Shown here: positions 10,638 through 48,340 of the stretch, piece after piece
How positions within the stretch are numbered: the stretch's first letter is position 1
Layout of the letters: the number at the start of each line of letters is the position of its first letter
Origin: Bacteroidota bacterium
GTDB taxonomy: Bacteria; Bacteroidota; Bacteroidia; JABEUT01
Reading direction: 5' to 3'
Assembly (NCBI GenBank): GCA_013285805.1
Contig: JABDGY010000005.1
Coordinates: 1 to 58,273 of the forward strand
Length of the DNA: 58,273 bases
Translations under genes and position numbers: made by a program
Notes under the pieces: model-generated
What the model was told of the DNA's origin: nothing
Databases searched by the model: none
What the model saw: only the letters and a program-made list of their open reading frames with translations

Positions 10638-12527
10638 ATGAACCTGTTATCTATAGAAAACCTGACCAAAGCATACGGAGATAAGCAACTATTCTCCTCC
10701 ATAAGCTTTGGTATTGAGCAGGGGCAACGTGTGGCATTGGTTGCACGCAATGGTGCAGGTAAGTCAACTTTGCTAAGGATAATAAGCGGAAAAGATATAG
10801 CCGACGGCGGTTTGGTTACTTTCCGGAACGATATACGTGTTTCTTTTCTTGATCAGGATCCTGAGTTTAAAAAGGGCGATACTGTTTACAAAGCCTTGTT
10901 CCATTCAGAAAATGCAATGCAAAAGGCCATAAGCAGTTATGAAATTGCATTAGAGAAGCATGAAGAAAATCCTTCTGCCGAGAATCAGAAGAAACTGGAA
11001 GATGCCATGCAACAGGTAGAAACCCATGACGCATGGAACTATGAAAGTAAGGTAAAGCAGATATTATCATCACTCAACATACATCATTTAGAACAGAATG
11101 TAGATTCACTTTCAGGTGGCGAGCTTAAAAGGCTTGCGCTGGCACGAGTGCTGATTGAAGAGCCTCAATTACTGATTATGGATGAGCCTACCAACCACCT
11201 TGACCTTGATATGATTGAGTGGCTGGAAAATTACTTTGTACGCAACAATGTTTCATTATTGGTTGTAACTCACGACAGGTACTTTTTAGATAATGTGTGC
11301 ACCGATATACTGGAACTGGATAACCTTACCTTATACAGGTATAAAGGCAACTACGAGTATTTTATAGAGAAGAAAGCAGAACGCGAATTCAATGAATCTA
11401 AAGAATTAGATAGGGCAAAAAACCTGTTCAGGCGTGAACTGGAATGGGTGCGTAAAATGCCAAGGGCAAGGGGCACAAAATCGAAGTCGAGGGTTGATGC
11501 ATTTAATAAACTCAATGATTCGCTTTCAGGCAGAAAAAAGCAGCAGGAGTTGCAGCTAAGTGTGAAGATGAACCGTATTGGCGGTAAGATACTTGAACTG
11601 AAAAAAGTAACTAAAAGCCATGGTGATAAACTAATATTAAAGGGATTCGACTATACTTTTAAAGCCGGCGAACGCATTGGTATTGCAGGCAAAAACGGAG
11701 TTGGCAAAACCACTTTTCTTAATATAATTACCGGCTTGGAACAAGCTGATTCAGGCAAGATAAATGTGGGAGAAACCATAGTATTCGGCTATTTCTCGCA
11801 AAAAGGCATTGAGCTGAAAAACGATAAACGGGTTATAGAAGTTATAAAAGAAGTAGGCGACTTTATTCCTATGGGCGATGGCTCAAAGTTATCTGCCGGG
11901 CAATTGCTACAATTGTTCCAGTTTCCACCCGAAATGCAATACACTTATGTTTCGAAATTAAGCGGTGGAGAAAAGAAAAGGCTTTACCTACTTACCATAC
12001 TGATGAAGAATCCGAACTTCCTGATACTCGATGAGCCCACTAACGACCTTGACCTTATTACATTAAGTACGCTGGAACAGTTCCTGTTGGATTTCAAAGG
12101 TTGTTTGATGATTGTATCTCACGACCGCTACTTTATGGATAAATTAGCTGATGAGCTATTTATACTTACAGGAAACGGTGAGGTGAAAATCTTCTATGGT
12201 TCTTACACTGACTTCAGAGAGTTTGAAAAAGAAAGCGAGAAACTGGAAGCGCAGCAAGCAAAAGAGGTTGAAGCCGAAGTGCAAATTGAAGCCACTACCG
12301 ACAAGACAAAAAGAAAACTAAGCTATAAGGAGAAGTTCGAGTTTGAAAATCTCTTTAAAGAGATTGAAAAACTGGAAAAGCAAAAAAGTCAGCTTGTTGA
12401 AAAACTTAACAATGCGACCAGTAATCATGAAGAGTTACTCCGTATATCTAGCGAACTGGGTGAAACCACCAAAGCCTTAGATGAAAAGCAATTGCGCTGG
12501 CTCGAACTAAGTGAATTTGCTGAATAA
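10638..12527 (+). CDS. ABC-F family ATPase (Uup/YfmR-like)
   Basis: Two NBDs (NGAGKST/LSGGE/DEPTNHLD and NGVGKTT/LSGGE/DEPTNDLD), no TM segments, C-terminal coiled coil KRKLSYKE. Confidence 0.92.
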   Translation: MNLLSIENLTKAYGDKQLFSSISFGIEQGQRVALVARNGAGKSTLLRIISGKDIADGGLVTFRNDIRVSFLDQDPEFKKGDTVYKALFHSENAMQKAISSYEIALEKHEENPSAENQKKLEDAMQQVETHDAWNYESKVKQILSSLNIHHLEQNVDSLSGGELKRLALARVLIEEPQLLIMDEPTNHLDLDMIEWLENYFVRNNVSLLVVTHDRYFLDNVCTDILELDNLTLYRYKGNYEYFIEKKAEREFNESKELDRAKNLFRRELEWVRKMPRARGTKSKSRVDAFNKLNDSLSGRKKQQELQLSVKMNRIGGKILELKKVTKSHGDKLILKGFDYTFKAGERIGIAGKNGVGKTTFLNIITGLEQADSGKINVGETIVFGYFSQKGIELKNDKRVIEVIKEVGDFIPMGDGSKLSAGQLLQLFQFPPEMQYTYVSKLSGGEKKRLYLLTILMKNPNFLILDEPTNDLDLITLSTLEQFLLDFKGCLMIVSHDRYFMDKLADELFILTGNGEVKIFYGSYTDFREFEKESEKLEAQQAKEVEAEVQIEATTDKTKRKLSYKEKFEFENLFKEIEKLEKQKSQLVEKLNNATSNHEELLRISSELGETTKALDEKQLRWLELSEFAE

Positions 12528-27238: not shown

Positions 27239-27273
27239 TATTTAAGATTTAGGAATTGAGATTTAAGATTTGA
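27239..27273. repeat. Heptamer tandem repeat (ATTTAAG-like)
   Basis: ATTTAAG ATTTAGG AATTGAG ATTTAAG ATTTG directly after the serA stop. Confidence 0.6.
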
Positions 27274-27339
27274 CAACGTGAGAGTCATGCTGGAATCGGT
27301 TCACTTATTCGTATATTTGTATATAATAAAACTATAGAA

Positions 27340-27612
27340 ATGATTAAGGCGGTTGCTGTAAAAGTATTAAATAACTATAATCTCTATATAAAGTTTAACG
27401 ACGGCGTTGAAGGTACTGTTGATTTATCCCACCTTAAAGATGGAAAAGCTTTTAGCATGTGGAAGGAACAAGGTAATTTTGAAAAAGCGCATATTGAAGG
27501 GGAAGCTATAGCATGGGATGAAAATCTGGATATCGACGCATTGAGCCTTTATCTACAGCTCACCAAACAAACATTTGCTGATTACACCGCCAAGCAAAAG
27601 AACCATGCCTAA
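27340..27612 (+). CDS. DUF2442-family protein (putative antitoxin)
   Basis: Y.L.I.F.DG..G.VDLS...IAW....DID...LY pattern; promoter TATATTTG at 27312-27319. Confidence 0.75.
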   Translation: MIKAVAVKVLNNYNLYIKFNDGVEGTVDLSHLKDGKAFSMWKEQGNFEKAHIEGEAIAWDENLDIDALSLYLQLTKQTFADYTAKQKNHA

Positions 27613-27865
27613 AATATCTTTTTTCTACGGCATAGTTATTTACATGTATTTTAATGACCACCATCCGGCACATTTTCATGCTATTTATGGAGAATACAGC
27701 GCCAAAATAGGAATTAACGACTATGCATTACTTGATGGATACCTTCCGCCAAAAGCATTCTCTCTTGTGGTTGAATGGGCAGCATTGCATAAAAGTGAGC
27801 TACTGAGCAACTGGGATAATATGTTGAAAAAAGAACCGTTCAACGCAATTGCTCCTCTTGAATAA
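27605..27865 (+). CDS. DUF4160-family protein (putative toxin)
   Basis: MPKISFFYGIVIYMYF.DH.PAHFHA.Y...LV.EWA..H..EL..NW...I.PLE; overlaps the upstream gene. Confidence 0.85.
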   Translation: MPKISFFYGIVIYMYFNDHHPAHFHAIYGEYSAKIGINDYALLDGYLPPKAFSLVVEWAALHKSELLSNWDNMLKKEPFNAIAPLE

Positions 27866-27875
27866 AGAAAAATTT

Positions 27876-28337
27876 ATGAAAAAATTAATCATATTACTGA
27901 CTGCAATTGCCCTAACTTCATGTAATCATTATACTACTGATAACAATTCGGAAAGCCAAGCCGTTCTCAATACCGATAAAGAGTTTAATGACTATTGTGC
28001 TAAAAATGGGCAGGCGGCCGCGTTTGTTAAGTATGCCGACTCATCACTCATTGCATTGGGTGAAGGCAGGCTACCTATACGTGGTATTGAGGAATTAAAA
28101 CAAGACTATGCCAAACGACATGACAGCAATAAACTGGCATGGATGCCTGAACGTGGCGAAGCATCAGGCAATATGGGATATACTTTTGGCTGGTGGAAAT
28201 ATTACACCAAAACCCGTGCAGGGCATGATACCGTTTACCAGGGCGATTATGTAACCGTCTGGAAAAAACAAAAAGACGGCTCGTGGAAATATGTGCTTGA
28301 TGGAGGAAACGATACCCCGGCGCATAATAAGTTTTAG
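27876..28337 (+). CDS. NTF2-like / DUF4440 (YybH) lipoprotein
   Basis: Lipobox LTSC; SG.MGYTFG.W and G.Y.TVWKKQ.DGSWK..LDGG. Confidence 0.82.
   Translation: MKKLIILLTAIALTSCNHYTTDNNSESQAVLNTDKEFNDYCAKNGQAAAFVKYADSSLIALGEGRLPIRGIEELKQDYAKRHDSNKLAWMPERGEASGNMGYTFGWWKYYTKTRAGHDTVYQGDYVTVWKKQKDGSWKYVLDGGNDTPAHNKF
28303..28336 (+). repeat. Direct repeat A, copy 1 (3' end of DUF4440 gene)
   Basis: GAGGAAACGATACCCCGGCGCATAATAAGTTTTA; 32 of 34 nt match 29213-29246. Confidence 0.9.
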
Positions 28338-28861
28338 GTTTTTTTTCTTCCGAAGAACTTCTTTAACCACGCTACTATTCTTTTGTCAGTAGAATATTTA
28401 TTGATGTTATGTAATTGCTCAACGTCAGCCGCATCTTTTAACCGGCCTGTTAACATCTTATTCACAATTAAATCCTGCAGGTGAATAAAATTCACCACTA
28501 AATTATCTACATACTTATATGAAATGCTCCTTTCCCGGGCATCTGTATACTCTACTCCAGTAATAGCATTAAACAAATCTATTTGTATGGGTTCGGCTCC
28601 AATCTTAACCGCGAATGGCTTTTTAAAGTCAGTGTTTTTGATGTGATCAACCAATTTCGAGGGGAACTTAAGCTCTTTAAATGCTGTAATAAGTCTTTTT
28701 TTATTCCTATCTTCAGGATTTATCCATATATCTAAATCACCCGTTGTTCTACCATATCCATAAAATACAACCGCATATCCGCCGACAATCATAAAATCGA
28801 CTTCATTATTATTGAGGGCATGCAATACATCCTCAAAATTCTCAGCCAGCTTTAGTGACAT
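28334..28861 (-). CDS. Nucleotidyltransferase (Pol-beta superfamily; putative TA component)
   Basis: VGGYAV..YG..RTTGDLDIW signature and C-terminal L..NK...GR.KD..D. Confidence 0.82.
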   Translation of the reverse strand: MSLKLAENFEDVLHALNNNEVDFMIVGGYAVVFYGYGRTTGDLDIWINPEDRNKKRLITAFKELKFPSKLVDHIKNTDFKKPFAVKIGAEPIQIDLFNAITGVEYTDARERSISYKYVDNLVVNFIHLQDLIVNKMLTGRLKDAADVEQLHNINKYSTDKRIVAWLKKFFGRKKT

Positions 28862-29141
28862 ACGGAAGCATTATTTTGAATACTTTTTCAAGTACCGGCC
28901 ATGAACCGTCGGGGTGCAGAAACTTGTTATAAACTTGTTTACGCAGAAACTCTAAGTTCTCCATACGTTGGTCGTATGACAGTGACGCATTTTCCTTCGC
29001 AGTAGCCTGGCTCATTTCTTCAAATGAATTGAAAACAGCTACACTTACCTTTTTATTCCTGTTGAAGGTGTAAGTAGCCATTGGCTCTGCAACTTTAGCT
29101 GTTTTTTTAACAACCTTCTTTTTATAGTTTTTACTTTTCAT
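28842..29141 (-). CDS. Small hypothetical partner of the nucleotidyltransferase
   Basis: 99 aa, overlaps the NTase start; FNSFEE...R...L..LR pattern; promoter TATATTTG on the minus strand at 29157-29164. Confidence 0.65.
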   Translation of the reverse strand: MKSKNYKKKVVKKTAKVAEPMATYTFNRNKKVSVAVFNSFEEMSQATAKENASLSYDQRMENLEFLRKQVYNKFLHPDGSWPVLEKVFKIMLPYVTKAG

Positions 29142-29212
29142 GCTATCTTCCTTATTCAAATATACGTATTTCAGGTAAGTATATTAGTTGTAATCACAGA
29201 TTAACACTTACA

Positions 29213-29246
29213 GAGGAAAAGATACTCCGGCGCATAATAAGTTTTA
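29213..29246 (+). repeat. Direct repeat A, copy 2 (orphan duplicate of DUF4440 3' end)
   Basis: GAGGAAAAGATACTCCGGCGCATAATAAGTTTTA; still encodes GKDTPAHNKF-stop. Confidence 0.9.
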
Positions 29247-29291
29247 AACTTTACTTTTTATTCGTATATTTGAAAGTATACATTCATTCTC

Positions 29292-29471
29292 ATGGGCACA
29301 TTACAGGAAAATATACCAATAAATCCTGAAGAAGTTATTCAGGCAGCTCATGAAACCTTATTAAAAAAGGTTGTCATGAAGACTTTGAACATCGTGGTTC
29401 TTGTAGTTCTTGTTGCAATTACCGCAGGTATTATCCTAACACTCGGATTGAGTAGCTACCACCCGGGATGA
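29292..29471 (+). CDS. Unannotated 59-aa single-pass membrane protein
   Basis: MGTLQENIPINPEEVIQAAHETLLKKVVMKTLNIVVLVVLVAITAGIILTLGLSSYHPG; promoter TTATTCGTATATTTG at 29258-29272. Confidence 0.65.
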   Translation: MGTLQENIPINPEEVIQAAHETLLKKVVMKTLNIVVLVVLVAITAGIILTLGLSSYHPG

Positions 29472-29485
29472 TAGTGTAGTCATTA

Positions 29486-29613
29486 CTAAAATCCTTCGCA
29501 TTACTTCTCCGCATTAAGTCGTATCTTTGGGTATATGAATTTTGAATTAGAATCAGACTTTTCACCCACCGGCGACCAGCCACAGGCGATATAGCAGTTA
29601 GTAAAAGGGATTA
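29486..29613 (+). pseudogene. uvrB: Orphan copy of uvrB promoter and first ~26 codons (direct repeat B, copy 1)
   Basis: Aligns with 33391-33518; reads MNFELESDFSPTGDQPQAI*QLVKGI with TAG at 29592-29594. Confidence 0.92.
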
Positions 29614-29698
29614 TTAATTCAGGGCATAATCAACTATTGGATTGCATCAGAATAATAAAAAGTTTGTATTTTTGGACTCAGAATAATACCGCTTGAAA

Positions 29699-32600
29699 AT
29701 GAAAAGAATTATTGTTCTATTCTTGTTGTTGCCAACACTATCTCTATTTGCACAAACCTATACTGTCAATACATTAGTCGGCTATTTTGACGGCAATGGC
29801 CATCCGGCTGATTCCATCGCAGTGTTTACACCAGGAGGGCTTGCCTTCGATTCTACAGGTGCCTTATATATTAGTGATGGAGGGAATTATATGGTTAGAA
29901 AGATAGACACCAAAGGTAATATCTCTATCATAGCAGGTACTGCAATACATGGGAACCATGGCGATGGAGGGCCTGCTACAAAAGCCTTGCTTGGTAACAT
30001 TGCAGGGATAAACTTCAGTAAGTCTGGTAATCTTTATATAACAGACGCGGAACACAGGTGTATCAGAATGGTTGATAAAAGTGGCATTATCAGTACAATT
30101 GCAGGTAATGGCACAGCTGGCTGCACCGGCGATGGGGGCTCCGCCAAATTAGCTGAATTTAATGACCCTCTGAATATAGTCACAGATAAGTCCGGAAATA
30201 TTTACGTTGCCGATGCCGGAAGTAATGAAATACGTAAAATAAACGCTTCAGGAATAATCTCTACAATAGCAGGGAATTGCAGTTTTGCAGGCTCTTATAC
30301 AGGTGATGGTGGGCCAGCAACTGCAGCATTATTGTCTTCCCCTACAACCATTGTGCTGGATATCTATGGTAATTTATTTATTGCCGACCAGAGTGGGGCA
30401 TGCATCCGCAAAATTGATACAACCGGTATTATTAAAACCATAGCAGGAACTGGTGTTGGAGGATATTCAGGTGATGGCGGCCCTGCTAAATCTGCTCAGT
30501 TGGATTTAACACAAGGAATTGGAATAGATTCTGCAGGAAATATTTACTTAGCTGATGCAGGAAATAACCGTATACGTAAGGTAAATGTTTCAGGAACAAT
30601 AACTACGATAGCAGGAAATGGAACTGCTGGTTTTACGGGCGATGGAGGATCAGCGAGTTCGGCAGAATTCAATGAACCTGCTGCTCTCGCAATTGCAAGT
30701 AACGGAAACATTTACATTGGCGATTATCTTAATCATAGGGTACGCATGATTAATAAAGCAGGTATTATAAATACAGTTGCCGGCAGTGGTAATCGTTCTT
30801 CCTATGGTGATGGAGGGCCGGCCCTTGATGCAGAACTTAGCGGACCTGGAGAAATAAGGCTGGATAATTACGGGAACGTTTATATAACAGATGGCCACAA
30901 TAATGCAGTCAGGAAGGCAGAAAAAAGCACAGGTATTATCACAACAGTGGCAGGTGCAAATAATGGAGATATTTTTGGATATAATGGAGATGGTATTTTG
31001 GCTACCGCCGCATGGCTAAACCAGCCCGGCTATATTTATGTCGACAATGCCGGCGATATCTATATATCAGACGGCAACAACAAACGTGTTCGCATGGTTA
31101 ATCCTTCGGGCATAATAAGTACAGTTGCGGGTAATGGTACAACAGGTTACTCGGGCGACGGAGGGCCTGCTACAGCTGCTGAGTTAGCTGGTCCGGACGG
31201 AGTAGTTAAGGATAAGCATGGTAACTTATATATAAGTGATGCGCCAAACTATCGTGTACGTAAGGTTGACGTAAGTGGTAAAATAACCACATTTGCCGGA
31301 AATGGAACCTTCGGCTATTCCGGCGACGGAGGGCCGGCGACGGCTGCAGAATGCACTCCCACCAATCTTTTGCTTGATAAAAATGGTGATTTAATAATCA
31401 GTGACCTTCTTAATCGCCGTATCCGTAAAGTGGACACAACTGGTAAGATTACAACTATAGCAGGAACAGGAACTCTTGGTTATTCGGGAGATGGGGGGCC
31501 CGCGACGGCTGCTGAAATAAGTGGCGCCACGGGAATGATTGTTGACACGGCGGGTAATATTTACTTTAATGACTATGTAAACCTGAGATTAAGAAAAATA
31601 AGCACTTTGGGAATAATAAGTACTATTGCAGGAAACGGCAGCCCCGGATATGGGAGTACTTCAGGCCCCGCAACCGCTGCACAATTTGATTTAAACTCAG
31701 GGCTGGCGTTAGATTCTACGGGTGTATTTTATGTAGCCGATGCTTATGATAATGATATCCGCAGGTTGTGCCCCGACCCTGCCTCCCCGGGCACCATAAC
31801 AGGTAACAAAACCGTGTGCCCCGGTAGTATACAAACTTACAGTATTAATAAAGTGACTAACGCTTATTCTTACACATGGTCATTACCGGCCGGATGGACA
31901 GGCACATCAACTGATACGTCAATCACTGTAACTGTAGGCTCTTCAGGTGGCAAAATAAGTGTTGTTTCTAATGGAATATGTAGTAGCAGCACTACTTCCT
32001 CTACGCTGACAATTACCGTTAAAACTTACGTTATTACAGTTAACCCTTCTTCAATTAACATATGTTCAGGTAGCCAAACCACATTAAATGCCCGCGGTGC
32101 TTTAACATACAGCTGGGCCCCGGCAGCCGGCTTAAGTAATACAGCGGACTCTGTCGTTACGGCAAGTCCGGCAATCAATACAACATATACCGTAACAGGC
32201 ACATTTAGTAATGGTTGTGTAAGTAGCGATACGATTAGTATTAATGTCTATCCTGTTAATGGCTTCGACCTTACCGGCAATCTTTATATATGTATTGATA
32301 CACCCAGCTTCTCTAATGCTTCTATAAGTGCATGTATTTTCAATAACCGATGTTTGCCCACCAAGGGAACGTTGAAACTTGTTGTTGATACAGCGTTTCA
32401 TATTAGCCACATAATCTCCGACAGTACGGCCATAACTAATGGTGATACCCTTATATGGCATTATGATAGCCTTTCAGATGCAGGGAACTCGCATAATGTA
32501 TCTTTGTCTGGAAATGTGGATTCACTTGGGGTTAATGACAGTGTATTTGTAACAGAAATAATAACACCCATAGCCGGAGACAGTGTTCCGTCAAACAATA

Positions 32601-33325
32601 GCGTTACGTATTGGGTAAAACTTTTCCCGCATAATTGCGTCGGGCTACCCTTTGACCCTAACACAAAAAGTGTGCTGCCCGCAGGTAATATAACCGATAC
32701 GACATTATTGCATTACACCATTCATTTTCAGAATACCGGTACCGCAATATGCAAAAACGTGATAGTATTAGATACCCTAAGCCAGTACCTTGACCCCACC
32801 ACACTCACGATAACTTCAAGCAGTAGCACCGTTGCTGTTACTATTCTGGCAGGACATATTGCAAAGTTTGAATTTGATAATATTGATTTGCCAGATACTA
32901 CAATGAGCAAAACAACCAGTATTGGTGTTGTAAAATTTAATATTCTTCCTCTAAGTAGTGATATAGCAGGAAGCGTGATAAAAAATAAGGCGGGCATCTA
33001 TTTTGATGGCAATCCAGTAGTGACGACCAACTCTACAATTAATATTATTTCATCGATTATTACATCTATAGGTAATATTACACCGCCTTTAAAAATAGCT
33101 TGCTTTCCCAATCCATTCATAACAAATACAAGCATAGTATTTAATTCAAATGGAGCGCATTATTTGGATTTATACGACATTACGGGCCGGAAATTGGAGC
33201 ATATAGAATGCACTGGCTCACAATACGAACTGAAACGAAATGATATAGCTGCCGGTGTCTATTTCATTAAAGCATACGATACAACCAATAAGAATATTGC
33301 GGTAAGCAAACTAATAGTTCAATAA
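29699..33325 (+). CDS. Large NHL-repeat (teneurin-like) surface protein with Ig/PKD-like domains and T9SS type A CTD
   Basis: About 11-12 repeats of ~56 aa (G.SGDGGPATAA...GN.YI.D..N.RIRK), an FDPN.K...YTIHFQNTG..A.IYFD domain and C-terminal FPNPF...YDITGR...GVYF..KLIVQ. Confidence 0.85.
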   Translation: MKRIIVLFLLLPTLSLFAQTYTVNTLVGYFDGNGHPADSIAVFTPGGLAFDSTGALYISDGGNYMVRKIDTKGNISIIAGTAIHGNHGDGGPATKALLGNIAGINFSKSGNLYITDAEHRCIRMVDKSGIISTIAGNGTAGCTGDGGSAKLAEFNDPLNIVTDKSGNIYVADAGSNEIRKINASGIISTIAGNCSFAGSYTGDGGPATAALLSSPTTIVLDIYGNLFIADQSGACIRKIDTTGIIKTIAGTGVGGYSGDGGPAKSAQLDLTQGIGIDSAGNIYLADAGNNRIRKVNVSGTITTIAGNGTAGFTGDGGSASSAEFNEPAALAIASNGNIYIGDYLNHRVRMINKAGIINTVAGSGNRSSYGDGGPALDAELSGPGEIRLDNYGNVYITDGHNNAVRKAEKSTGIITTVAGANNGDIFGYNGDGILATAAWLNQPGYIYVDNAGDIYISDGNNKRVRMVNPSGIISTVAGNGTTGYSGDGGPATAAELAGPDGVVKDKHGNLYISDAPNYRVRKVDVSGKITTFAGNGTFGYSGDGGPATAAECTPTNLLLDKNGDLIISDLLNRRIRKVDTTGKITTIAGTGTLGYSGDGGPATAAEISGATGMIVDTAGNIYFNDYVNLRLRKISTLGIISTIAGNGSPGYGSTSGPATAAQFDLNSGLALDSTGVFYVADAYDNDIRRLCPDPASPGTITGNKTVCPGSIQTYSINKVTNAYSYTWSLPAGWTGTSTDTSITVTVGSSGGKISVVSNGICSSSTTSSTLTITVKTYVITVNPSSINICSGSQTTLNARGALTYSWAPAAGLSNTADSVVTASPAINTTYTVTGTFSNGCVSSDTISINVYPVNGFDLTGNLYICIDTPSFSNASISACIFNNRCLPTKGTLKLVVDTAFHISHIISDSTAITNGDTLIWHYDSLSDAGNSHNVSLSGNVDSLGVNDSVFVTEIITPIAGDSVPSNNSVTYWVKLFPHNCVGLPFDPNTKSVLPAGNITDTTLLHYTIHFQNTGTAICKNVIVLDTLSQYLDPTTLTITSSSSTVAVTILAGHIAKFEFDNIDLPDTTMSKTTSIGVVKFNILPLSSDIAGSVIKNKAGIYFDGNPVVTTNSTINIISSIITSIGNITPPLKIACFPNPFITNTSIVFNSNGAHYLDLYDITGRKLEHIECTGSQYELKRNDIAAGVYFIKAYDTTNKNIAVSKLIVQ

Positions 33326-33390
33326 AATTACTGCACCATAGACAAATACAGCGTAGCAAAAAACATGATACATTCATATAGAAAGTGGTG

Positions 33391-33518
33391 CTAAAATCCT
33401 TCGCATTACTTCTGCCGTATAAGTCGTATCTTTGGGTATATGAATTTTGAATTAGAATCAGATTTTGAGCCCACGGGCGACCAGCCACAGGCCATAGAAC
33501 ATTTGGTAAATGGCATTA
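33391..33518 (+). repeat. Direct repeat B, copy 2 (functional uvrB promoter and 5' end)
   Basis: CTAAAATCCTTCGCATTACTTCT...GTCGTATCTTTGGGTATATGAATTTTGAATTAGAATCAGA...; TATCTTTG at 33427-33434. Confidence 0.92.
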
Positions 33519-35473
33519 AATCGGGTAACAAAAACCAGATTTTACTTGGCGTTACCGGTTCGGGTAAAACATTCAGCATTGCCAATGTAATTGCCCAGGT
33601 GCAGCGCCCTACGCTGGTTTTCAGCCATAACAAAACCCTGGCGGCCCAGTTATTCGGGGAGTTCAAGCAGTTTTTCCCGAGAAATTCGGTTGAGTATTTT
33701 GTATCCTATTACGATTACTACCAACCCGAGGCATACCTGCCAACAACCGATACTTATATTGAAAAGGACCTTTCCATAAATGATGAACTGGAGAAACTGC
33801 GCCTCAGTGCTACCTCTGCCCTGCTCTCGGGTAGGCGCGATATTATTGTGGTTTCATCGGTATCGTGCATATATGGTATTGGTAACCCGGTTGAATTTGA
33901 AAAGAATGTAATACCCCTGCAAAAGGGAATGAAGATAAGCCGCAATAAGCTGCTTAATATGCTGGTTACTTCCCTCTATTCCCGCACGGAGAGTGATTTT
34001 CTCAGGGGTAATTTCAGGGTAAAAGGCGATACCATAGATATCTATCTTGCCTATGCTGATTACGCCATTCGTGTGCAGTTTTTTGGCAACGAGATTGAAT
34101 CAATGGAAAGCTTTGAAGCCTCTACAGGCAGGAAAATAGAAAACGTAGAAGCGATACGGATTTATCCTGCAAACATATTTGTCACTTCACCCGATACGCT
34201 TAGTAAATCTATTGAGCAGATACAAAAAGACTTAGCTTCACATGTGGCCTATATGGAAAGTGTAGGCAAGGAAGAAGAAGCTAACCGCCTGCAAAAGCGC
34301 GTGAACTATGACCTGGAGATGATGCGCGAATTAGGTTACTGTTCGGGCATTGAGAACTATTCCCGCTATTTCGATGGCCGCCCGCCGGGTGCAAGGCCAT
34401 TCTGTTTGCTCGATTATTTTCCTAAAGATTACTTAATGGTAATTGACGAGAGCCACGTTACCATTCCGCAGATAAGAGGTATGTATGCAGGCGATCGTTC
34501 AAGAAAAGAGACATTGGTTGAGTATGGATTCCGCTTACCTTCTGCATTAGATAACAGGCCGTTGAAGTTCGATGAGTTCGAGGCCATGGAAAACCAGGTT
34601 ATTTACCTGAGTGCAACCCCATCGGACTTTGAATTACAGAAATGCGAAGGTGTGTTGGTAGAACAATTAATCCGCCCTACCGGCCTGCTTGACCCGATTA
34701 TAGAAGTGCGCCCTACCCTCAACCAGATTGATGATCTGCTGGAAGAAATACATAGGGTAACCGCGAAAGATGAACGTACTATTATAACCACGCTTACCAA
34801 GCGCATGGCGGAAGAGTTAACTAAATATTTAACTAAACTGGATATTCGCTGCCGTTACATACACTCTGAAGTTGAGACATTGGAAAGGGTTGAAATACTG
34901 CGTGACTTACGTCTTGGCTTATTTGATGTGCTTATTGGCGTGAACCTTTTAAGAGAAGGTATTGACTTACCCGAAGTATCATTATTAGCTATACTTGATG
35001 CAGATAAAGAAGGCTACCTGCGTTCGGAACGTTCACTTACGCAGATTATTGGGCGTGTGGCACGTAATGCCAACGGCAGGGTTATTATGTATGGCGATAA
35101 GGTAACGGTATCTATGCAGAAGACTATTGACGAGACATTGAGGAGAAGGAAGAAACAGATTGCCTATAACTTTGAGCACAATATCACTCCTGAAACCATC
35201 TATAAATCGAAGGAAGCGATTATAGAACAGACCAGTGTTATTGACTTAACGAGAGGAAGAAATACACCTAAAGTGTATATAGAAGCATCTGCTCCTACCA
35301 TAGCGGCAGAGCCGGTTGCAGGTTACTCTGATAATGCACTGGAAGAAAAGATAAAGAAGTTAAAGAAGGAAATAGAAAAAGCAGCTAAGGAATTGGATTT
35401 CCTTGAAGCTGCCCGGTTAAAAGACCAGCTTTTGTCATTGCAAAAGTCCCTCGACGATAGAAGAAAGAAATAA
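33440..35473 (+). CDS. uvrB: Excinuclease ABC subunit B
   Basis: PTGDQP, GVTGSGKT, YYDYYQPEAY, IDESHVT, GFRLPSA.DNRPL and a C-terminal UVR domain. Confidence 0.98.
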   Translation: MNFELESDFEPTGDQPQAIEHLVNGIKSGNKNQILLGVTGSGKTFSIANVIAQVQRPTLVFSHNKTLAAQLFGEFKQFFPRNSVEYFVSYYDYYQPEAYLPTTDTYIEKDLSINDELEKLRLSATSALLSGRRDIIVVSSVSCIYGIGNPVEFEKNVIPLQKGMKISRNKLLNMLVTSLYSRTESDFLRGNFRVKGDTIDIYLAYADYAIRVQFFGNEIESMESFEASTGRKIENVEAIRIYPANIFVTSPDTLSKSIEQIQKDLASHVAYMESVGKEEEANRLQKRVNYDLEMMRELGYCSGIENYSRYFDGRPPGARPFCLLDYFPKDYLMVIDESHVTIPQIRGMYAGDRSRKETLVEYGFRLPSALDNRPLKFDEFEAMENQVIYLSATPSDFELQKCEGVLVEQLIRPTGLLDPIIEVRPTLNQIDDLLEEIHRVTAKDERTIITTLTKRMAEELTKYLTKLDIRCRYIHSEVETLERVEILRDLRLGLFDVLIGVNLLREGIDLPEVSLLAILDADKEGYLRSERSLTQIIGRVARNANGRVIMYGDKVTVSMQKTIDETLRRRKKQIAYNFEHNITPETIYKSKEAIIEQTSVIDLTRGRNTPKVYIEASAPTIAAEPVAGYSDNALEEKIKKLKKEIEKAAKELDFLEAARLKDQLLSLQKSLDDRRKK

Positions 35474-41957: not shown

Positions 41958-43541
41958 CTAACGCGGGGCCGCGTATTTACCTTTTGGCTCGGCTGCAATA
42001 GTTAAGTGCTCTTTTGGCTCTTTGTATGCAGTACCTTTTTGTTCATGCGAAGGCATTCCTTCGGAAAATGCCTCTTTAAGCACTGCTTGCAATAATTGTT
42101 CTGCCTGTTTTTGGCTTTGAGTAATACTTTGTTCTAATTCATTACAATAGGCCATTAACTGCTCTATTTTAGCAACTATACGCTGTTGTTCAGGAAGTGG
42201 AGGAAGCGGAATTAATAATGAGGTAATTTGCCCTTGGTTAATTGAGGCTTGCCCTGTCATTTTTTTAAATTTTTTGAAAATCTGATCCTTTATTATTGAT
42301 GATTGGAATAAGTAATTAATATACCTAGGCAATATCTTTGCTTCAAATAGTCTAACTCTTATATTTTTACTTTCATACACAAATACCTCATTTAATTTAT
42401 CTATATATGCTGACTTGCCAAGTAACTCAATACTATTAACTCGATTAAGAAGTAAGTCACCCGGCTTTAATGAGTAAGTTTCTATTTCAGAAATGGTTAA
42501 ACTCATCCTTTTTAAATTATGAAAACTTATTTCTCCATTCTGAATATTATACATTCTTAGGCAGGCTATTCCATCATCATTATAATACTTATCTTCTTTA
42601 TAAATTCCATTATTCATAGTTAGAACAATACTACCTAACCTACACCAAACCCAACCTTTAGGTAATTCATAAGGAATTTCATCGTTAGTGATTGGAGGCA
42701 ATGGCTTTTCCTTTTTTAGTTTGCCTTGTGCAGTAAGCTTTTCTTTCTCTGCTTTAATTCTTTTTAGTAATTCGCTTGCGGGTTCATCTTTAGGGTTTTG
42801 TGGAACAAGTTTGCCTTGCACTGCATCTTGTAATATGGCTTGGCGGAGTTTATTGATTATATCCGTTTGTTGGTGGAATTGGGCAGAAGTATTTGAAATA
42901 GATTCGCCTAATTCCTGCAGCTTCAAAATCTGTTCTTCAACCTTATCATTGAAGTACGTTTGTTTTTTTAAAGTACCATTCTTTAAATCATTAAAAAATG
43001 AGACAATTTTGGCTTGAATATTCTTTCCGGGGAATGGTAATTGCATTGCCTCAATTTGTGCATTACCTATATTCGGCTGTGCTCCACCATAACCCATATT
43101 TTTTACCTTATCTTGAATTCCTCTTGCAATCCAGTAAATATATTCCGGAATAAATTCAATCGGGTTAAGAATAGAAAACTTACCAACACGCTGATTCAAA
43201 TACAATTTACCTAAACCACTCTGAACTATTGCTAATTTCCCTATTGTTCCACCTGTCATTGCTATTATTATATCGCCCTCACTTAATTCAAATCTTTCAA
43301 ATTCTTTACTCTCTTTATAATAGCGTACGCTGGATAAATCAATTTTCTCATCTTGAAAATCAGAAATTCTAATTATAGGAATTCCAGTTGATCGATACTC
43401 TCCAGATTTAAATGAGTATCCTCCAATAATTTTAATGTGCTTAGAAATAGGCTCTATAGGGATTGTTTTTTCCAGCTCATTATTTACAATAGTAATATAT
43501 GCTGAGATATTCTTAAAGAAAACCTTTTCTCGCATTGTCAT
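41958..43541 (-). CDS. hsdS: Type I restriction-modification specificity subunit
   Basis: Two AT-rich TRDs separated by LRQAILQDAVQGKLVPQ.P.DEPASELL...PYELPKGW.W; PLPPLPEQQRIV. Confidence 0.93.
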   Translation of the reverse strand: MTMREKVFFKNISAYITIVNNELEKTIPIEPISKHIKIIGGYSFKSGEYRSTGIPIIRISDFQDEKIDLSSVRYYKESKEFERFELSEGDIIIAMTGGTIGKLAIVQSGLGKLYLNQRVGKFSILNPIEFIPEYIYWIARGIQDKVKNMGYGGAQPNIGNAQIEAMQLPFPGKNIQAKIVSFFNDLKNGTLKKQTYFNDKVEEQILKLQELGESISNTSAQFHQQTDIINKLRQAILQDAVQGKLVPQNPKDEPASELLKRIKAEKEKLTAQGKLKKEKPLPPITNDEIPYELPKGWVWCRLGSIVLTMNNGIYKEDKYYNDDGIACLRMYNIQNGEISFHNLKRMSLTISEIETYSLKPGDLLLNRVNSIELLGKSAYIDKLNEVFVYESKNIRVRLFEAKILPRYINYLFQSSIIKDQIFKKFKKMTGQASINQGQITSLLIPLPPLPEQQRIVAKIEQLMAYCNELEQSITQSQKQAEQLLQAVLKEAFSEGMPSHEQKGTAYKEPKEHLTIAAEPKGKYAAPR

Positions 43542-44974
43542 TGTGGTAATTCAGATTTTATTTTAATTAAAATATCATTACTTAATTTAATTGATGAAGC
43601 AAGCATATTAATTAATTCCTCACTTGTATATTGCTTTTCCTCTTCTTTAATTGTGGGGTTCTTTATATCAAGGTTATAATTTCGTTTCCTAATTTCTTCA
43701 ATACTTACTTTCCAGGCATATTCATTCTCTACCCTTTTTTTCCACCATTTCTTTTCTAAATCAAACTCCTTTATGTTAATGGGTTTGGTCTTGTTGTAGT
43801 TCTTTACCCCTTCAGGGTAAGGGTGTTCAAAATACCATATATCCTTTGTGGGCTTACCTTTCTCAAAAAACAGCAAGTTGGTTTTAATGCCTGTATAAGG
43901 CGCAAATACTCCATTTGGCAAGCGTACAATTGTATGCAGATTGCAATCCATTAAAAGTTTCTCCTTTATTCGTGTAGCTACACCTTCACCAAATAAAAAG
44001 CCATCGGGCAAAACTACGCCGGCCCGTCCGCCATCTTTAAGTATATGCACTATTAAAAATAAAAACAAGCTCGCGGTTTCCCGTGTACGGTAAGAAAGAG
44101 GGAAATTATTTTCAACCCCGTCTTCTTCCATTCCGCCAAAGGGCGGGTTGGTTACTATAACATCTACTCTGTTAGCATTGCTCCACGAGCTGAGAGATTG
44201 CATTAGCAAATTATCATGCTCAATAGAAGGTATTTCAATACCATGCAACATTAAATTGGTACTTGCCAACATGTGGGGCAATGGCTTCTTCTCAACTCCT
44301 CGTATGCTCCTTTGCAAGGTATTTAATTTAATAGGAGAGTCAATTGTTTCGCTTTTGCGAATATGTTCAATGGCGTTTACCAAGAAGCCTCCGGTGCCAC
44401 AGGCAGGGTCAAGTATGCTTTCACCCAATTTAGGGTTCACCATTTCAACTACAAATTGGGTAACGGCACGGGGAGTATAAAACTCCCCCGCGTTGCCTGC
44501 GCTTTGCAGGTCTTTCAGTATCTGCTCGTAAATATCATTAAACAGGTGGCGTTCGGCGCCTGTGCCAAAATGAATGTCCTTGTTTATTTTATTAATAACC
44601 TGCCTTAACAGGGTGCCGTTTTTCATATAATTATATGAATCTTCGAACACACCACGCACCATTAATCCTGTGTCTTTGTTATTGCGGGGCTTTAACTCTT
44701 TAAGCGTAGGGAAAAGATTGTTATTTACAAAGCTTAGTAATTCATCCCCGGTCATTCCTTCCTCATCAGTGGCCCAATTGCGCCAGCGCAAATCTCTCCG
44801 AATGGGCGATTTATAATCCTCATCTGTTGCTTCCCAATCGTTTTCTTTTTCATCAAATATTTTCAAAAACAGCATCCAGCCAAGCTGAGATATGCGTTGC
44901 GCATCGCCATCAACACCCGCGTCTCTGCGCATAATGTCTTGAATGGATTTTATGGTAGAGGATAGGTTACTCAT
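43538..44974 (-). CDS. hsdM: Type I restriction-modification N6-adenine methyltransferase
   Basis: GEFYTPR, DPACGTGGFL, TNPPFGG and IVRLP.GVF.PY; overlaps hsdS by 4 nt. Confidence 0.96.
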   Translation of the reverse strand: MSNLSSTIKSIQDIMRRDAGVDGDAQRISQLGWMLFLKIFDEKENDWEATDEDYKSPIRRDLRWRNWATDEEGMTGDELLSFVNNNLFPTLKELKPRNNKDTGLMVRGVFEDSYNYMKNGTLLRQVINKINKDIHFGTGAERHLFNDIYEQILKDLQSAGNAGEFYTPRAVTQFVVEMVNPKLGESILDPACGTGGFLVNAIEHIRKSETIDSPIKLNTLQRSIRGVEKKPLPHMLASTNLMLHGIEIPSIEHDNLLMQSLSSWSNANRVDVIVTNPPFGGMEEDGVENNFPLSYRTRETASLFLFLIVHILKDGGRAGVVLPDGFLFGEGVATRIKEKLLMDCNLHTIVRLPNGVFAPYTGIKTNLLFFEKGKPTKDIWYFEHPYPEGVKNYNKTKPINIKEFDLEKKWWKKRVENEYAWKVSIEEIRKRNYNLDIKNPTIKEEEKQYTSEELINMLASSIKLSNDILIKIKSELPQ

Positions 44975-45002
44975 AGTTTTTTAGTATCTTTGTGTAAATG
45001 AA

Positions 45003-45164
45003 ATGCGCATGGCAAAGGTTGTAAAGATATATAAACCCACACACGAGGAAATATTGAAAAATGTTCTTGGTTCATTCGAAATTGAGAATATTAAAATTTC
45101 ATATACAACTGCCAAAAAATCAATGCAAAAAGTTCTCGATAAAATCAAAAAAGAGAACGTATAA
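45003..45164 (+). CDS. Unannotated 53-aa antisense micro-ORF with Fic-antitoxin-like motif
   Basis: MRMAKVVKIYKPTHEEILKNVLGSFEIENIKISYTTAKKSMQKVLDKIKKENV; TATCTTTG at 44985-44992; SFEIEN fits (S/T)xxxE(G/N). Confidence 0.55.
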   Translation: MRMAKVVKIYKPTHEEILKNVLGSFEIENIKISYTTAKKSMQKVLDKIKKENV

Positions 45165-45194
45165 TTTCTTCCATTGGCTTATAGTCTTGTTAAA

Positions 45195-45833
45195 TTATAT
45201 AGTCAGGCTTTCATGATTGTTTTTATCTTTTTCCCAATTCATTGGATTATTCTGAATATATTTTCGTATTGTTATTAAATCGTTTTCAGATTTAATAATA
45301 TGATCATAATAACGGGGTTGCCATTCAAATTCTATTTTATTAGTTGTGGCAAATGTCTTTACACCGGCTTTATATCCCCGTATTATGGAGCCAAGGTTTT
45401 TCGATTGGGGGCCAAATTTATTGGGTTGCCGTGGAGATGCAAAGTCTTGTGCCTGTGCCTTATTAATAAATAATATCCCATGAATATGATTCGGCATTAT
45501 TATAAATTCATCCAATTCAACAAATGGGAAATGTTTAGGAATGTTTGTCCAATATTGGTATGCAATATTTCCAATTTCGGTTGCCTGTAGAGACGGCCGG
45601 TTTTGTGATAGAGACGCAAAATATTGCGTCTCTACGGTTCCGTTGGTGGTGTTCCGTAGAGACGGATGATTATCCGTCTCTACCACATTGCGTGTTTCTA
45701 CAATTGCAATATCACCAAAATAATGTGCCCTGTTTTTCGTGCAAATGGTTATAAAATACATGGCATTTGACCCATAATCCCAATTTTTTAGTCGGGTGGT
45801 TTCAATTCTGTATTTATTTTGAAATTTCTCCAT
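45195..45833 (-). mobile_element. REP-associated tyrosine transposase (RAYT, HUH Y1 family)
   Basis: RL..WDY.....YFITICT..R...FG, MPNHIHGI (HUH), LGSIIRGYK and WQPRYYDHII........YI.NNP..W. Confidence 0.9.
45586..45702. repeat. GTAG-type REP hairpins inside the RAYT ORF
   Basis: ATAGAGACGCAA-AATA-TTGCGTCTCTAC (45608-45635) and GTAGAGACGGAT-GATT-ATCCGTCTCTAC (45656-45683), with half-sites at 45586 and 45691-45702. Confidence 0.88.
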
Positions 45834-45842
45834 TTACCTTAT

Positions 45843-48212
45843 TTAGGCAGTTTTATAAAGCTCATCTTCCAATTCCTTTAATGCTTTTCTAAAATGGGTT
45901 GGACCACCAAACCATTTTACAATTTCGGCAGGCGTACCCATTTGGCTTAAGGGTTCTAATTCCAATACCCTGGCACTTTCAATATTCTCAATTCCTTTAT
46001 CGGCATATTTCTCAAGCAGGGCTTCCAATACCTTCCGTGCTTGTTCGCCATATTTAGTAAAGTAATTACGTTTCTTAACGTTGTTTGCTCTTTCTTTTCG
46101 TGTAAGCGGAGGCATATCAAAAGCCACATGGCAAATCAGGTCAAAGGTATCCAAATCTTTATTTACACTTTCCTGCAATTCATCTAAAAATATACCGTGT
46201 TCAAGCAATTCGGCATGTATCTCTTGTTTCTTTTGCGCCTGGTTCCATTTGTTTATAAACTCATTTAATGAGCGGAACTCCTTTTGCAAATGCTTTTTGC
46301 TGTAATCTTTCAGCGTTTCGCTAATCAGCTTTCCGTCAACCCCATAATATTGTACCCGCTCATTCAATACTTTTACTTCAACGCCGCGCACAAAAACCTT
46401 TCTTAAACGTTGCCCGTTTTCGCCGCTTTCAATTATTTGCTCTTGCCCTAATGTTTTCACCTTTACTCTTTCCCCATCTATTTCAATATAGTCCCCCTCT
46501 TCATCTGCTTCAACAACCTGCAAAATATCACCTGCTTTTGGCTCATAAATTTTTACAGGCTCGCCATCAAAATCTTTATCGGCAAATAAATTGGTAGCAT
46601 TCCTGAAATCCATTATGGTAAAATAGTATTTGCCGTATTCTTCATTAATACGTGTTCCCCTGCCAATAATCTGCTTAAACTCAGTCATGCTTTGTATATT
46701 GGCATCAAGCACAATCAGTTTACAGGTCTGGGCATCAACGCCAGTAGTCATTAGTTTCGAGGTGGTTGCAATTACAGGGTACTTCTGTTCAGGGTCAATA
46801 AAATTGTCCAGTTCACGTTTGCCTTCATCATCATCTCCCGTAATTTTCATTATGTATTTATGGTTCTCTTTTACCAAGTCGGCATTTTCATTTGCAAGGC
46901 ACTGGCGCATGCGGTCAGCATGGTCTATATCCACGCAAAAAATTATCGTTTTATCAAAACGATTGGTGAGTTTTAAATACTCTGTAACTTTTTTTGCCAC
47001 TAACCTTGTTCTTTCTTCTATTACGAGGGTTCTGTCAAAATCGCGTGTATTATAAAGCCTGTCTTCAACCAAATTCCCTTCTGTGTCTTTCTTTCCTTTT
47101 TCGGGCCTGTAACCTTCAAGGTCTTTATCGAGCCCAATTCGCACCACCTTATATGGCGCAAGAAAACCATCTTCAATACCTTGCTTTAATGAATAGGTGT
47201 AAACAGGTTCCCCGAAATAATCAATATTCGAAATGTCTTTTGTTTCTTTAGGTGTTGCGGTTAAACCTATCTGCGTGGCAGATGTAAAATATTCCAGTAT
47301 TTCGCGCCATGCGGCATCGTCTGCGGCGCTGCCACGGTGGCACTCATCTACAATAACCAAATCAAAAAAGTCAGGAGAGAATTGCTTATAAATATTCCTG
47401 TCTTCTTCATTGCCTGTTAACCCTTGGTACAAGGCCAGATATACTTCATACGATTTATCTACTTTATGATTGCGCACCATAGTCATCTTATCGCCAAAGT
47501 ATTTAAAGTCGCCTCGCTTTGCTTGCCCTATAAGTGCATTTCTGTCGGCCAAAAACAAAATGCGTTTTTTCTTTCCCGCTTTCCATAACCTCCACGCAAT
47601 TTGAAAAGCGGTATAGGTTTTTCCAGTACCGGTAGCCATTACAAGTAATACCCTGTCATTGCCCTTGGCAATAGATTCAATAGTACGGTTAATGGCAATT
47701 GCCTGATAGTATCTTATTTCGCGTCCGACGGCTTCGTAATAATCCTGTGCGACTACTTTTTCAACTTCTAGGTGGGCAATACCCTTCAATATTTTGTACC
47801 TGCGCCACAATTCCTCAGGCGATGGAAATTCTTCTAAACTGATTTCTCTTTCCAGTGCACCGTTTACCAATGATTTGTCGTGCTCATAAAAAGCATCACC
47901 ATTGCTGCTATATACAAATGGAATATCAAGCGTTTTTGCATATTCCAATGCTTGCTGAATGCCAGCCTTAACGCTGTGGTTATTATCTTTTGCTTCTATT
48001 ATAGCAATTGGAATATTAGACTTATAATAAAGAATATAGTCGGCTCTTTTCTGCTTGCCCCGAACATGAAGCTTGCCTTTTACATAAATCCTTCCGGCTG
48101 TAAACGATTTTTCCTCCCTTACCTGTAAATCAATATCCCAACCCGCCTGCTTAATAGCAGGCGTAATATATTTAGTGCATATATCTCTTTCCGAGAGTTC
48201 CTTCTTTGACAT
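45843..48212 (-). CDS. hsdR: Type I restriction endonuclease subunit R (EcoAI/EcoEI-like)
   Basis: SE.DIC.KYITPA, ADY.L...IEAK nuclease motif, ATGTGKT, DECH, TATP and QIIGRGTR. ATG 48212 is preferred over the longer ORF-track start. Confidence 0.96.
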   Translation of the reverse strand: MSKKELSERDICTKYITPAIKQAGWDIDLQVREEKSFTAGRIYVKGKLHVRGKQKRADYILYYKSNIPIAIIEAKDNNHSVKAGIQQALEYAKTLDIPFVYSSNGDAFYEHDKSLVNGALEREISLEEFPSPEELWRRYKILKGIAHLEVEKVVAQDYYEAVGREIRYYQAIAINRTIESIAKGNDRVLLVMATGTGKTYTAFQIAWRLWKAGKKKRILFLADRNALIGQAKRGDFKYFGDKMTMVRNHKVDKSYEVYLALYQGLTGNEEDRNIYKQFSPDFFDLVIVDECHRGSAADDAAWREILEYFTSATQIGLTATPKETKDISNIDYFGEPVYTYSLKQGIEDGFLAPYKVVRIGLDKDLEGYRPEKGKKDTEGNLVEDRLYNTRDFDRTLVIEERTRLVAKKVTEYLKLTNRFDKTIIFCVDIDHADRMRQCLANENADLVKENHKYIMKITGDDDEGKRELDNFIDPEQKYPVIATTSKLMTTGVDAQTCKLIVLDANIQSMTEFKQIIGRGTRINEEYGKYYFTIMDFRNATNLFADKDFDGEPVKIYEPKAGDILQVVEADEEGDYIEIDGERVKVKTLGQEQIIESGENGQRLRKVFVRGVEVKVLNERVQYYGVDGKLISETLKDYSKKHLQKEFRSLNEFINKWNQAQKKQEIHAELLEHGIFLDELQESVNKDLDTFDLICHVAFDMPPLTRKERANNVKKRNYFTKYGEQARKVLEALLEKYADKGIENIESARVLELEPLSQMGTPAEIVKWFGGPTHFRKALKELEDELYKTA

Positions 48213-48340
48213 TAAGGTGGTCTTATCCTGCGAAAATATTAAATATAAAGGAACCTTCAAAAAACCTTAAAGGGGGGGTGTTAATAATAACTGCACATTT
48301 CTCTTTAATAAGGTTTATGGCTGGAGTAAATTTGCTTTGA

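Follow-up and report, generated by a model that had tools for sequence, protein, structure and literature searches.

A secreted-protein gene between two diverged alleles of the uvrB start in a soil Bacteroidia genome

The DNA examined here is a contig of 58,273 nucleotides (nt) (the window; contig C5 of the assembly, JABDGY010000005.1) from a soil Bacteroidia metagenome-assembled genome (MAG, GCA_013285805.1) of 2.05 Mb, which is 60% complete and consists of 110 contigs. In this window the uvrB gene is preceded by a second copy of its own promoter region and first codons, and the two copies enclose a single gene coding for a protein with NHL repeats and a type IX secretion system (T9SS) sorting domain. 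We consider it probable (roughly 60%) that the NHL gene arrived as a single-gene insertion specific to this lineage, with one allele of the uvrB start on either side, and that it was acquired by homology-driven recombination with a diverged close relative, without a dedicated recombinase.

Alignment of positions 29486-29613 with 33391-33518 revealed a gap-free direct repeat of 128 nt and 87% identity (repeat family D5). When the whole assembly was searched with the segment 29440-29660, matches were obtained in two places only, the query itself (E=3.5e-112) and the second copy (E=6.2e-40), and the likeness of the two uvrB-start copies is far beyond chance. Both copies contain the box TATCTTTG (29522-29529 and 33427-33434), followed five bases on by an ATG (29535 and 33440) and then by uvrB codons. 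The longest perfect homology is a block of 43 nt (29515-29557, identical to 33420-33462), which is likely to be a zone of crossover or gene conversion. The downstream copy belongs to the intact gene, and uvrB retains a full promoter copy and its reading frame. The upstream copy, referred to below as the orphan, is interrupted by a TAG at codon 20 (29592-29594), leaving an open reading frame (ORF) of 19 codons. At the protein level it is UvrB-like up to about 29639 (35 residues, 71% identity, one TAG), and the likeness stops exactly before the Walker A motif GVTGSGKT, which is present in every relative. An earlier note, made from the letters of this DNA, had described a repeat of about 128 bp consisting of the uvrB promoter and 5' end and bracketing one T9SS gene, with a premature TAG and a 19-codon ORF in the upstream copy; the alignment and the genome search bear this out. 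Its figure of about 26 uvrB codons is correct for the DNA repeat, whereas the protein likeness reaches about 35 codons. Between the end of the TATCTTTG box and the uvrB ATG there are 5 nt (window 33427-33442); judging from the promoter geometry that we assume for these bacteria, the uvrB mRNA may be leaderless or nearly so.

The differences between the two copies are of the kind that accumulates in coding DNA. Among the 26 shared codons 12 nucleotides differ, 9 of them at codon position 3 (binomial P=0.004); five of the differing codons are silent and four are non-silent, the TAG being one of the four. UvrB residues and nucleotides were compared with those of 13 relatives. Serine at position 10 of the orphan is the state in 5 of the 13, lysine at position 24 in 7, and glutamine at position 21 in all of them. 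A UvrB from the protein database with 94% identity (P0003) reads EQLVKGI and shares QLVKGI with the orphan. At residue 21 of the working UvrB (window 33500-33502) a histidine was found in place of the glutamine of the 13 relatives, P0003 and the orphan. The TAG is the only difference in the orphan that looks like decay. The third-position bias, together with the relative-like residues, suggested that the orphan is a second, once-working allele and not a decayed local copy. The same two observations oppose an explanation by a local duplication of the uvrB start that has been decaying neutrally. The earlier note had held that the copies diverged while both were coding, and that lack of a synonymous bias would mean neutral decay; the bias exists, and all five synonymous pairs that it had listed (GAC/GAT, ACC/ACG, GCG/GCC, TTA/TTG and GGG/GGC) are present.

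The two copies proved to be each other's nearest sequence. In the coding part 66 of 78 nucleotides are common to both, versus 49-58 of 78 shared with the 13 relatives, and in the promoter part the corresponding values are 44 of 49 versus 11-25 of 49. This indicated that the second allele came from a close relative, nearer than all 17 species representatives of the genus. The differences are not evenly spread: the left 72 nt contain 5, which are clustered, and the right 56 nt contain 12 (Fisher p=0.02), and third-position differences were counted in none of the 7 codons 1-7 and in 9 of the 19 codons 8-26. This unevenness suggests that the identical block ends at a boundary of crossover or conversion. 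It also fits an import tract ending at about 33462, as would be left by a history in two steps: a local target duplication of about 150 nt (or template switching) around the incoming gene, and later replacement of the working uvrB start by the allele of a diverged strain, the old allele surviving as a fossil in the orphan. Furuta, Abe and Kobayashi (2010, PMC2853133) have documented long target duplications in which mobility genes are lacking. Such a history requires two events where one suffices, and further observations that bear on it were made at another locus (see below).

To determine whether the NHL gene is an insertion, the locus was compared with 12 same-genus genomes having 1.2-10 kb of assembled DNA upstream of uvrB; all empty-site comparisons for this gene are therefore between species. 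In a tblastn search the NHL gene was absent upstream of uvrB from all 12 loci. Similarly, none of the 12 contained a second uvrB start, apart from one unrelated inverted match in non-coding DNA. In the two closest genomes with synteny (G002 and G015) serA and a DUF4440 gene are followed by uvrB after 557 and 1350 bp, respectively. The absence of both the NHL gene and the second start from the relatives, where the earlier note had proposed to look for empty sites, indicated that the NHL gene has been inserted. The flanking direct repeats are longer than 30 bp (128 nt), and the repeated sequence is single-copy in the 12 relatives lacking the insert.

No integrase or transposase family, PF00589 included, matched any of the 49 window ORFs (7 + 42) subjected to the family search, in agreement with the earlier note. 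In the whole genome PF00589 (tyrosine recombinase) gave two matches only, both on other contigs (C20 and C17). The Rfam search yielded no match at E<=0.1, and the tRNA scan none near the locus. A ComEC family member is present in this genome and also in 10 of 14 control genomes, and is uninformative on competence. At least 80 loci were collected by scanning metagenomes with the UvrB protein, with a best match of 84% identity among the loci listed, and 70 of them were checked for a second uvrB start. None was found at 69 of these 70 loci, and the remaining one gave a weak match in non-coding DNA. The exact 32-nt core pattern was found in no metagenome contig.

The earlier note had attributed the arrangement to an attP-bearing element that repaired its target. 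A remnant or satellite of a site-specific integrative element, whose attP carried a replacement uvrB promoter and 5' end and whose integrase has been lost or acts in trans, would account for the 43-nt identical core inside both repeats, for the intact restoration of uvrB and for a displaced end that has diverged mostly at silent sites, a feature shared by known gene-end-replacing elements. However, a recombinase is missing from the window, the insert comprises a single gene plus flanks of 45-80 nt on each side, the repeat occurs nowhere else in the genome, and the second uvrB start did not recur in the 12 relatives or, with the exception of the one weak non-coding match, in the 70 metagenome loci.

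The same footprint was detected at two other loci of this genome. One of them, on contig C17, involves an OstA-like/LptD_N gene, whose last 33 codons are found again 14 nt downstream of the stop codon of a gene coding for 462 amino acids (aa) with a T9SS tail. The two copies differ at 16 nucleotides, 13 of them at position 3, and 13 of the 14 differing codons, TGA/TAG included, are silent (P=1e-4). The only amino-acid difference in the 33 codons of the orphan end is located where the likeness begins. The T9SS gene and the second gene end were absent from the corresponding loci of all seven relatives compared, in five of which the OstA-like gene is directly followed by a conserved 707-aa neighbour. 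These data speak against a two-step history: the silent differences extend through the stop codon, so that the donor of the later import must already have carried the same cargo, and the orphan differs in one amino acid in spite of 13 silent codons. We regard a duplication followed by allele replacement as possible but unlikely.

The second case adjoins the uvrB locus. The last ~11 codons and the stop codon of the DUF4440 gene (28303-28349) are repeated at 29213-29259 (repeat D9), and between the two ends lies a cassette of two genes, a nucleotidyltransferase and a 105-aa partner, which was absent from the relatives' loci. The pair looks like a toxin-antitoxin module. The short ORF between the two orphaned gene ends (orf59) had no tblastn match in the loci of the 13 relatives. 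The segment 29213-29639 looks like part of the plain haplotype, in the order DUF4440 end, orf59 and uvrB start, and is flanked on each side by a cassette. In a genome-wide search for orphan ends, carried out by DNA self-comparison and with the first 60 and last 40 residues of 1660 ORFs, no further clear case was encountered; apart from the three loci, the matches of both comparisons were rejected, since they came from repeats within proteins, tandem paralogs, T9SS tails or intergenic repeats. The occurrence of the footprint at three different targets, with allele-like repeats and no recombinase, suggested homology-driven recombination with a diverged close relative. One site-specific enzyme would not explain the same footprint on two other, quite different target sequences, and the attP-bearing element of the earlier note is not supported for this reason as well.

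A further alternative is that two strain variants had been strung together in series by the metagenome assembly. Independent assemblies, all of k=31 contigs, came from four of the six soil-metagenome runs containing the stretch. One contig of run X1 (record 1), a run possibly made from the source sample, extends from the left flank to 29544 and includes both DUF4440 ends with the cassette. Another X1 contig covers 29528-33449, beginning in one copy of the block and ending in the other; the block itself forms a separate 43-nt contig. In run X4 the pieces begin at the same block edges and have about equal depths (5.5, 5.6-10.2 and 6.8). A contig of run X6 (record 25, 2481 nt) contains the NHL 3' end, the block and uvrB in one piece. 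Thus, independent contigs support the right-side arrangement, and the pieces on the left side. The k=31 contigs are compatible alike with a linear single copy, a tandem array or a circle, and parts without contig cover carry no weight as evidence. The contigs would also fit an empty site plus a loop; this fact, the lack of a listed contig across the left junction, and the incompleteness and fragmentation of the MAG would be in favour of an artefact. On the other hand, contigs from four runs, which belong to four studies, contain the pieces, record 25 of X6 spans the junction from the NHL gene through the block into uvrB, record 1 of X1 holds the DUF4440 repeat pair together with its cassette, and a 43-nt identical block is short enough to be spanned by ordinary reads. 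With the third-position bias added, an assembly artefact or a neutrally decaying local duplication is very unlikely.

The same contigs bear on the integrative element. The loop block-NHL-block in the X1 graph, and the excess depth of the NHL segment in this run, would be compatible with an excised or amplified form, but in record 25 of X6 the 3' end of the NHL gene is attached to chromosomal uvrB. A site-specific element that has lost its integrase is the weakest of the biological readings, and we think it quite improbable. Two further observations were made in these assemblies. An X4 contig matches the window from 29381 (inside orf59) rightwards and carries unrelated DNA before this point, indicating that the left side varies between co-occurring strains. 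A low-depth contig of X6 omits 1036 nt within the NHL repeats (30111-31148) and has 10 different letters where the ends meet; a variant in repeat number or a paralog could account for it.

Recombination with a close relative, our preferred explanation, could have proceeded as follows. In one event, DNA of a diverged close relative would have delivered the cargo gene together with the adjoining uvrB start, the short homology at the uvrB start being used for recombination. The incoming fragment might have circularised and integrated by a single crossover; alternatively, homologous crossover at one end might have been combined with an illegitimate joint at the other, comparable to the process defined in PMC3240628. 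Either the resident or the incoming uvrB start would thereby have been stranded as an orphan, and the data fit either copy as the resident one. The orphan would have been a working allele until the event, and would have gained one stop codon since. The 43-nt identical block would permit loss of the cargo or its tandem amplification by ordinary homologous recombination.

Several points weigh against this explanation. The uneven divergence of the two copies is not predicted by a simple one-event import, and requires a crossover in the block, later gene conversion or later allele replacement. Within the species neither an empty site nor a donor arrangement was found (UvrB identity is only 84-85% in the nearest genomes whose context is available), and the recombination route is inferred only. 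The left junction is bridged by the MAG assembly only, and by none of the listed independent contigs. In X1 the depth of the NHL segment was 47.5 compared with 13.2 for the left flank (3.6-fold), and that of the block was 70. A plain single-copy insertion does not explain the NHL depth; the values fit a tandem array, or a unit present in more genomes than this left flank. Finally, the DUF4440 case is short and statistically weak (6 differences, P=0.1).

The sole gene between the repeats (29693-33325) codes for a protein of 1210 aa that matched TEN_NHL, NHL, PKD_6, DUF7619 and Por_Secre_tail, the last at residues 1138-1209 (30.1 bits, cut-off 27). The N-terminus MKRIIVLFLLLPTLSLFAQ is hydrophobic and was assessed by eye as a signal peptide; the protein has both features of a T9SS cargo, a C-terminal sorting domain and an N-terminal signal peptide. 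Among 40 relatives no ortholog was found, the best non-self matches having 55-62% identity in the C-terminal part only. The NHL query found matches in all 17 same-genus genomes, with 45-219 candidates per genome at first look, and the family is greatly expanded in the genus. In composition the gene does not stand out as foreign, its GC content (42.2%) being near that of the genome (41.2%). The flanks between the gene and the repeats (29614-29692 and 33326-33390) had no further copy in the whole genome, and the insert is thus not a recurrent cassette here.

The earlier note had considered that the orphan promoter, which points at the NHL gene behind the 19-codon ORF, might have been captured. 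The NHL gene is preceded by a promoter-like box of its own, TATTTTTG, which we take to be of the TAnnTTTG type known from Bacteroidetes promoters. With such a box, promoter capture would not be needed. The + strand was free of terminator-like sites from the orphan promoter to the NHL gene, and read-through across the 19-codon ORF is therefore possible; the NHL gene may be expressed from its own box, perhaps with a contribution from the orphan promoter. A sigma-70 promoter scan gave 19 sites against 16.8 expected and is uninformative for this phylum. The 12-mer CCGCTTGAAAAT opens both inserted T9SS genes (window 29689-29700 and G000:C17:34965-34976), occurs three times in the genome, and is similarly spaced after a TAnnTTT-like box in both of these genes. 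The features of the locus are listed in Table 1.

Table 1. Features of the uvrB locus and of the related loci (positions refer to the window unless a contig is named)
Feature	Position	Strand	Basis
Orphaned uvrB allele: promoter-like region, ATG 29535, ~35 uvrB codons, TAG 29592-29594	29486..29639	+	alignment, protein comparison
43-nt identical block (= 33420-33462)	29515..29557	+	alignment; own 43-nt k=31 contig in X1
Putative -7-like box of the NHL gene, TATTTTTG, 25 nt before ATG 29699	29667..29674	+	sequence; function inferred
Cargo gene: NHL beta-propeller repeats, PKD-like and Ig-like domains, DUF7619, T9SS C-terminal sorting domain	29693..33325	+	family search
Working copy: uvrB promoter region and first 26 codons	33391..33518	+	alignment
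Intact uvrB, 677 aa, all UvrB domains	33440..35473	+	family search; full-length 75-85% identity to same-genus UvrB
Two-gene cassette between DUF4440 3' ends: DUF2204/DUF6036 nucleotidyltransferase and 105-aa partner	28334..29159	-	family search
Orphaned DUF4440 end: ~11 last codons and stop, second member of D9	29213..29259	+	repeat comparison
orf59: 59-codon ORF with one predicted membrane helix, between two orphaned gene ends	29292..29471	+	
462-aa T9SS-tail gene between the working 3' end of the OstA-like/LptD_N gene and the orphan end	G000:C17:33302-36473 (L056:3303-6474)		

Other structures were noticed in the window and elsewhere in the genome. A DUF2442/DUF4160 pair lies between serA and the DUF4440 gene (window 27239-27848), and no flanking repeat was seen around it; in G002 and G015 serA and DUF4440 are only 4 nt apart. 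A complete type I restriction-modification system (HsdS, HsdM, a 212-aa ORF and HsdR) is located among housekeeping genes at window 41958-48260. On contig C20 a 94-nt direct repeat, 84% identical and consisting of a hairpin and a T-rich segment, surrounds two genes (G000:C20:6915-7006 and 11038-11131) and adjoins a tyrosine-recombinase gene (11434-12309, - strand), one of the only two in the genome. Intergenic direct repeats of 40-78 nt with 85-100% identity were also found around single small genes at C36:9882-10861, C6:46518-48695 and C31:14509-15091; these short repeats may be shared promoter or terminator modules.

The locus shows how members of a fast-expanding family of secreted surface proteins can slot in beside essential genes, leaving them undisturbed, without transposases or integrases, and past recombination between diverged lineages is recorded in the stranded gene ends, which serve as dated fossils. 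It is conceivable, although we consider it doubtful, that soil Bacteroidia of this genus trade single promoter-bearing surface-protein genes across diverged lineages without recombinases, landing on the ends of housekeeping genes and leaving allelic orphans behind. If exchange of this kind takes place, the flanking repeats would let the cargo be amplified in tandem or shed, and the 3.6-fold depth excess of the NHL segment in one soil sample would be explained. If the pattern were general, orphan gene ends with silent differences only would be a simple marker for recombinase-free gene gain in uncultured bacteria. On its own the uvrB case belongs to a known kind of footprint and surprises only moderately; what deserves to be followed is that the footprint recurs at three loci, with T9SS cargo in two of them, and that the NHL segment has excess depth in X1.

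In E. coli prophage e14 sits in the 3' end of icd. Integration of islands and prophages within the 5' end of dusA has been described (PMC4482086). As with these elements, the insert studied here lies in the end of a housekeeping gene and supplies a replacement end, so that the gene stays whole and the displaced copy is stranded; an identical core is found within the repeats (43 nt here), and the differences are mostly silent. The described dusA and e14 elements encode an integrase beside the att site and recur at their target in many genomes. In contrast, the uvrB locus has no recombinase and only one cargo gene, and the arrangement did not recur in the 12 genus relatives or, the one weak non-coding match apart, at the 70 metagenome loci.

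In Campbell-type insertion-duplication the stretch of homology is invariably doubled around the insert when a circular fragment integrates by a single crossover. Like homology-facilitated illegitimate recombination (PMC3240628), it is a process defined in the laboratory. In both, as proposed for the NHL gene, foreign DNA is added beside a short homology by a recombinase-independent mechanism.

The cases that Furuta, Abe and Kobayashi described as insertion with long target duplication (PMC2853133) lack mobility genes, have repeats of 46 to ~420 bp and come mostly from naturally competent species; the cargo consists of restriction-modification units, for which amplification through the repeats was proposed. 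The uvrB locus resembles them in that a short gene block without integrase or transposase is flanked by repeats far longer than the target duplications of transposons (128 nt here), and that the repeat is single-copy in genomes lacking the insert. It differs in several respects. The repeats of the described cases are near-identical (44/46 to 417/423), whereas those at uvrB are 87% identical, allele-like and biased to third positions; the cargo is a T9SS surface-protein gene, the host is a soil Bacteroidia MAG, and the empty site comes from other species only. Insertion with long target duplication is nevertheless the closest described kind, and the structure is best classed with this known footprint, as a variant that needs no recombinase.

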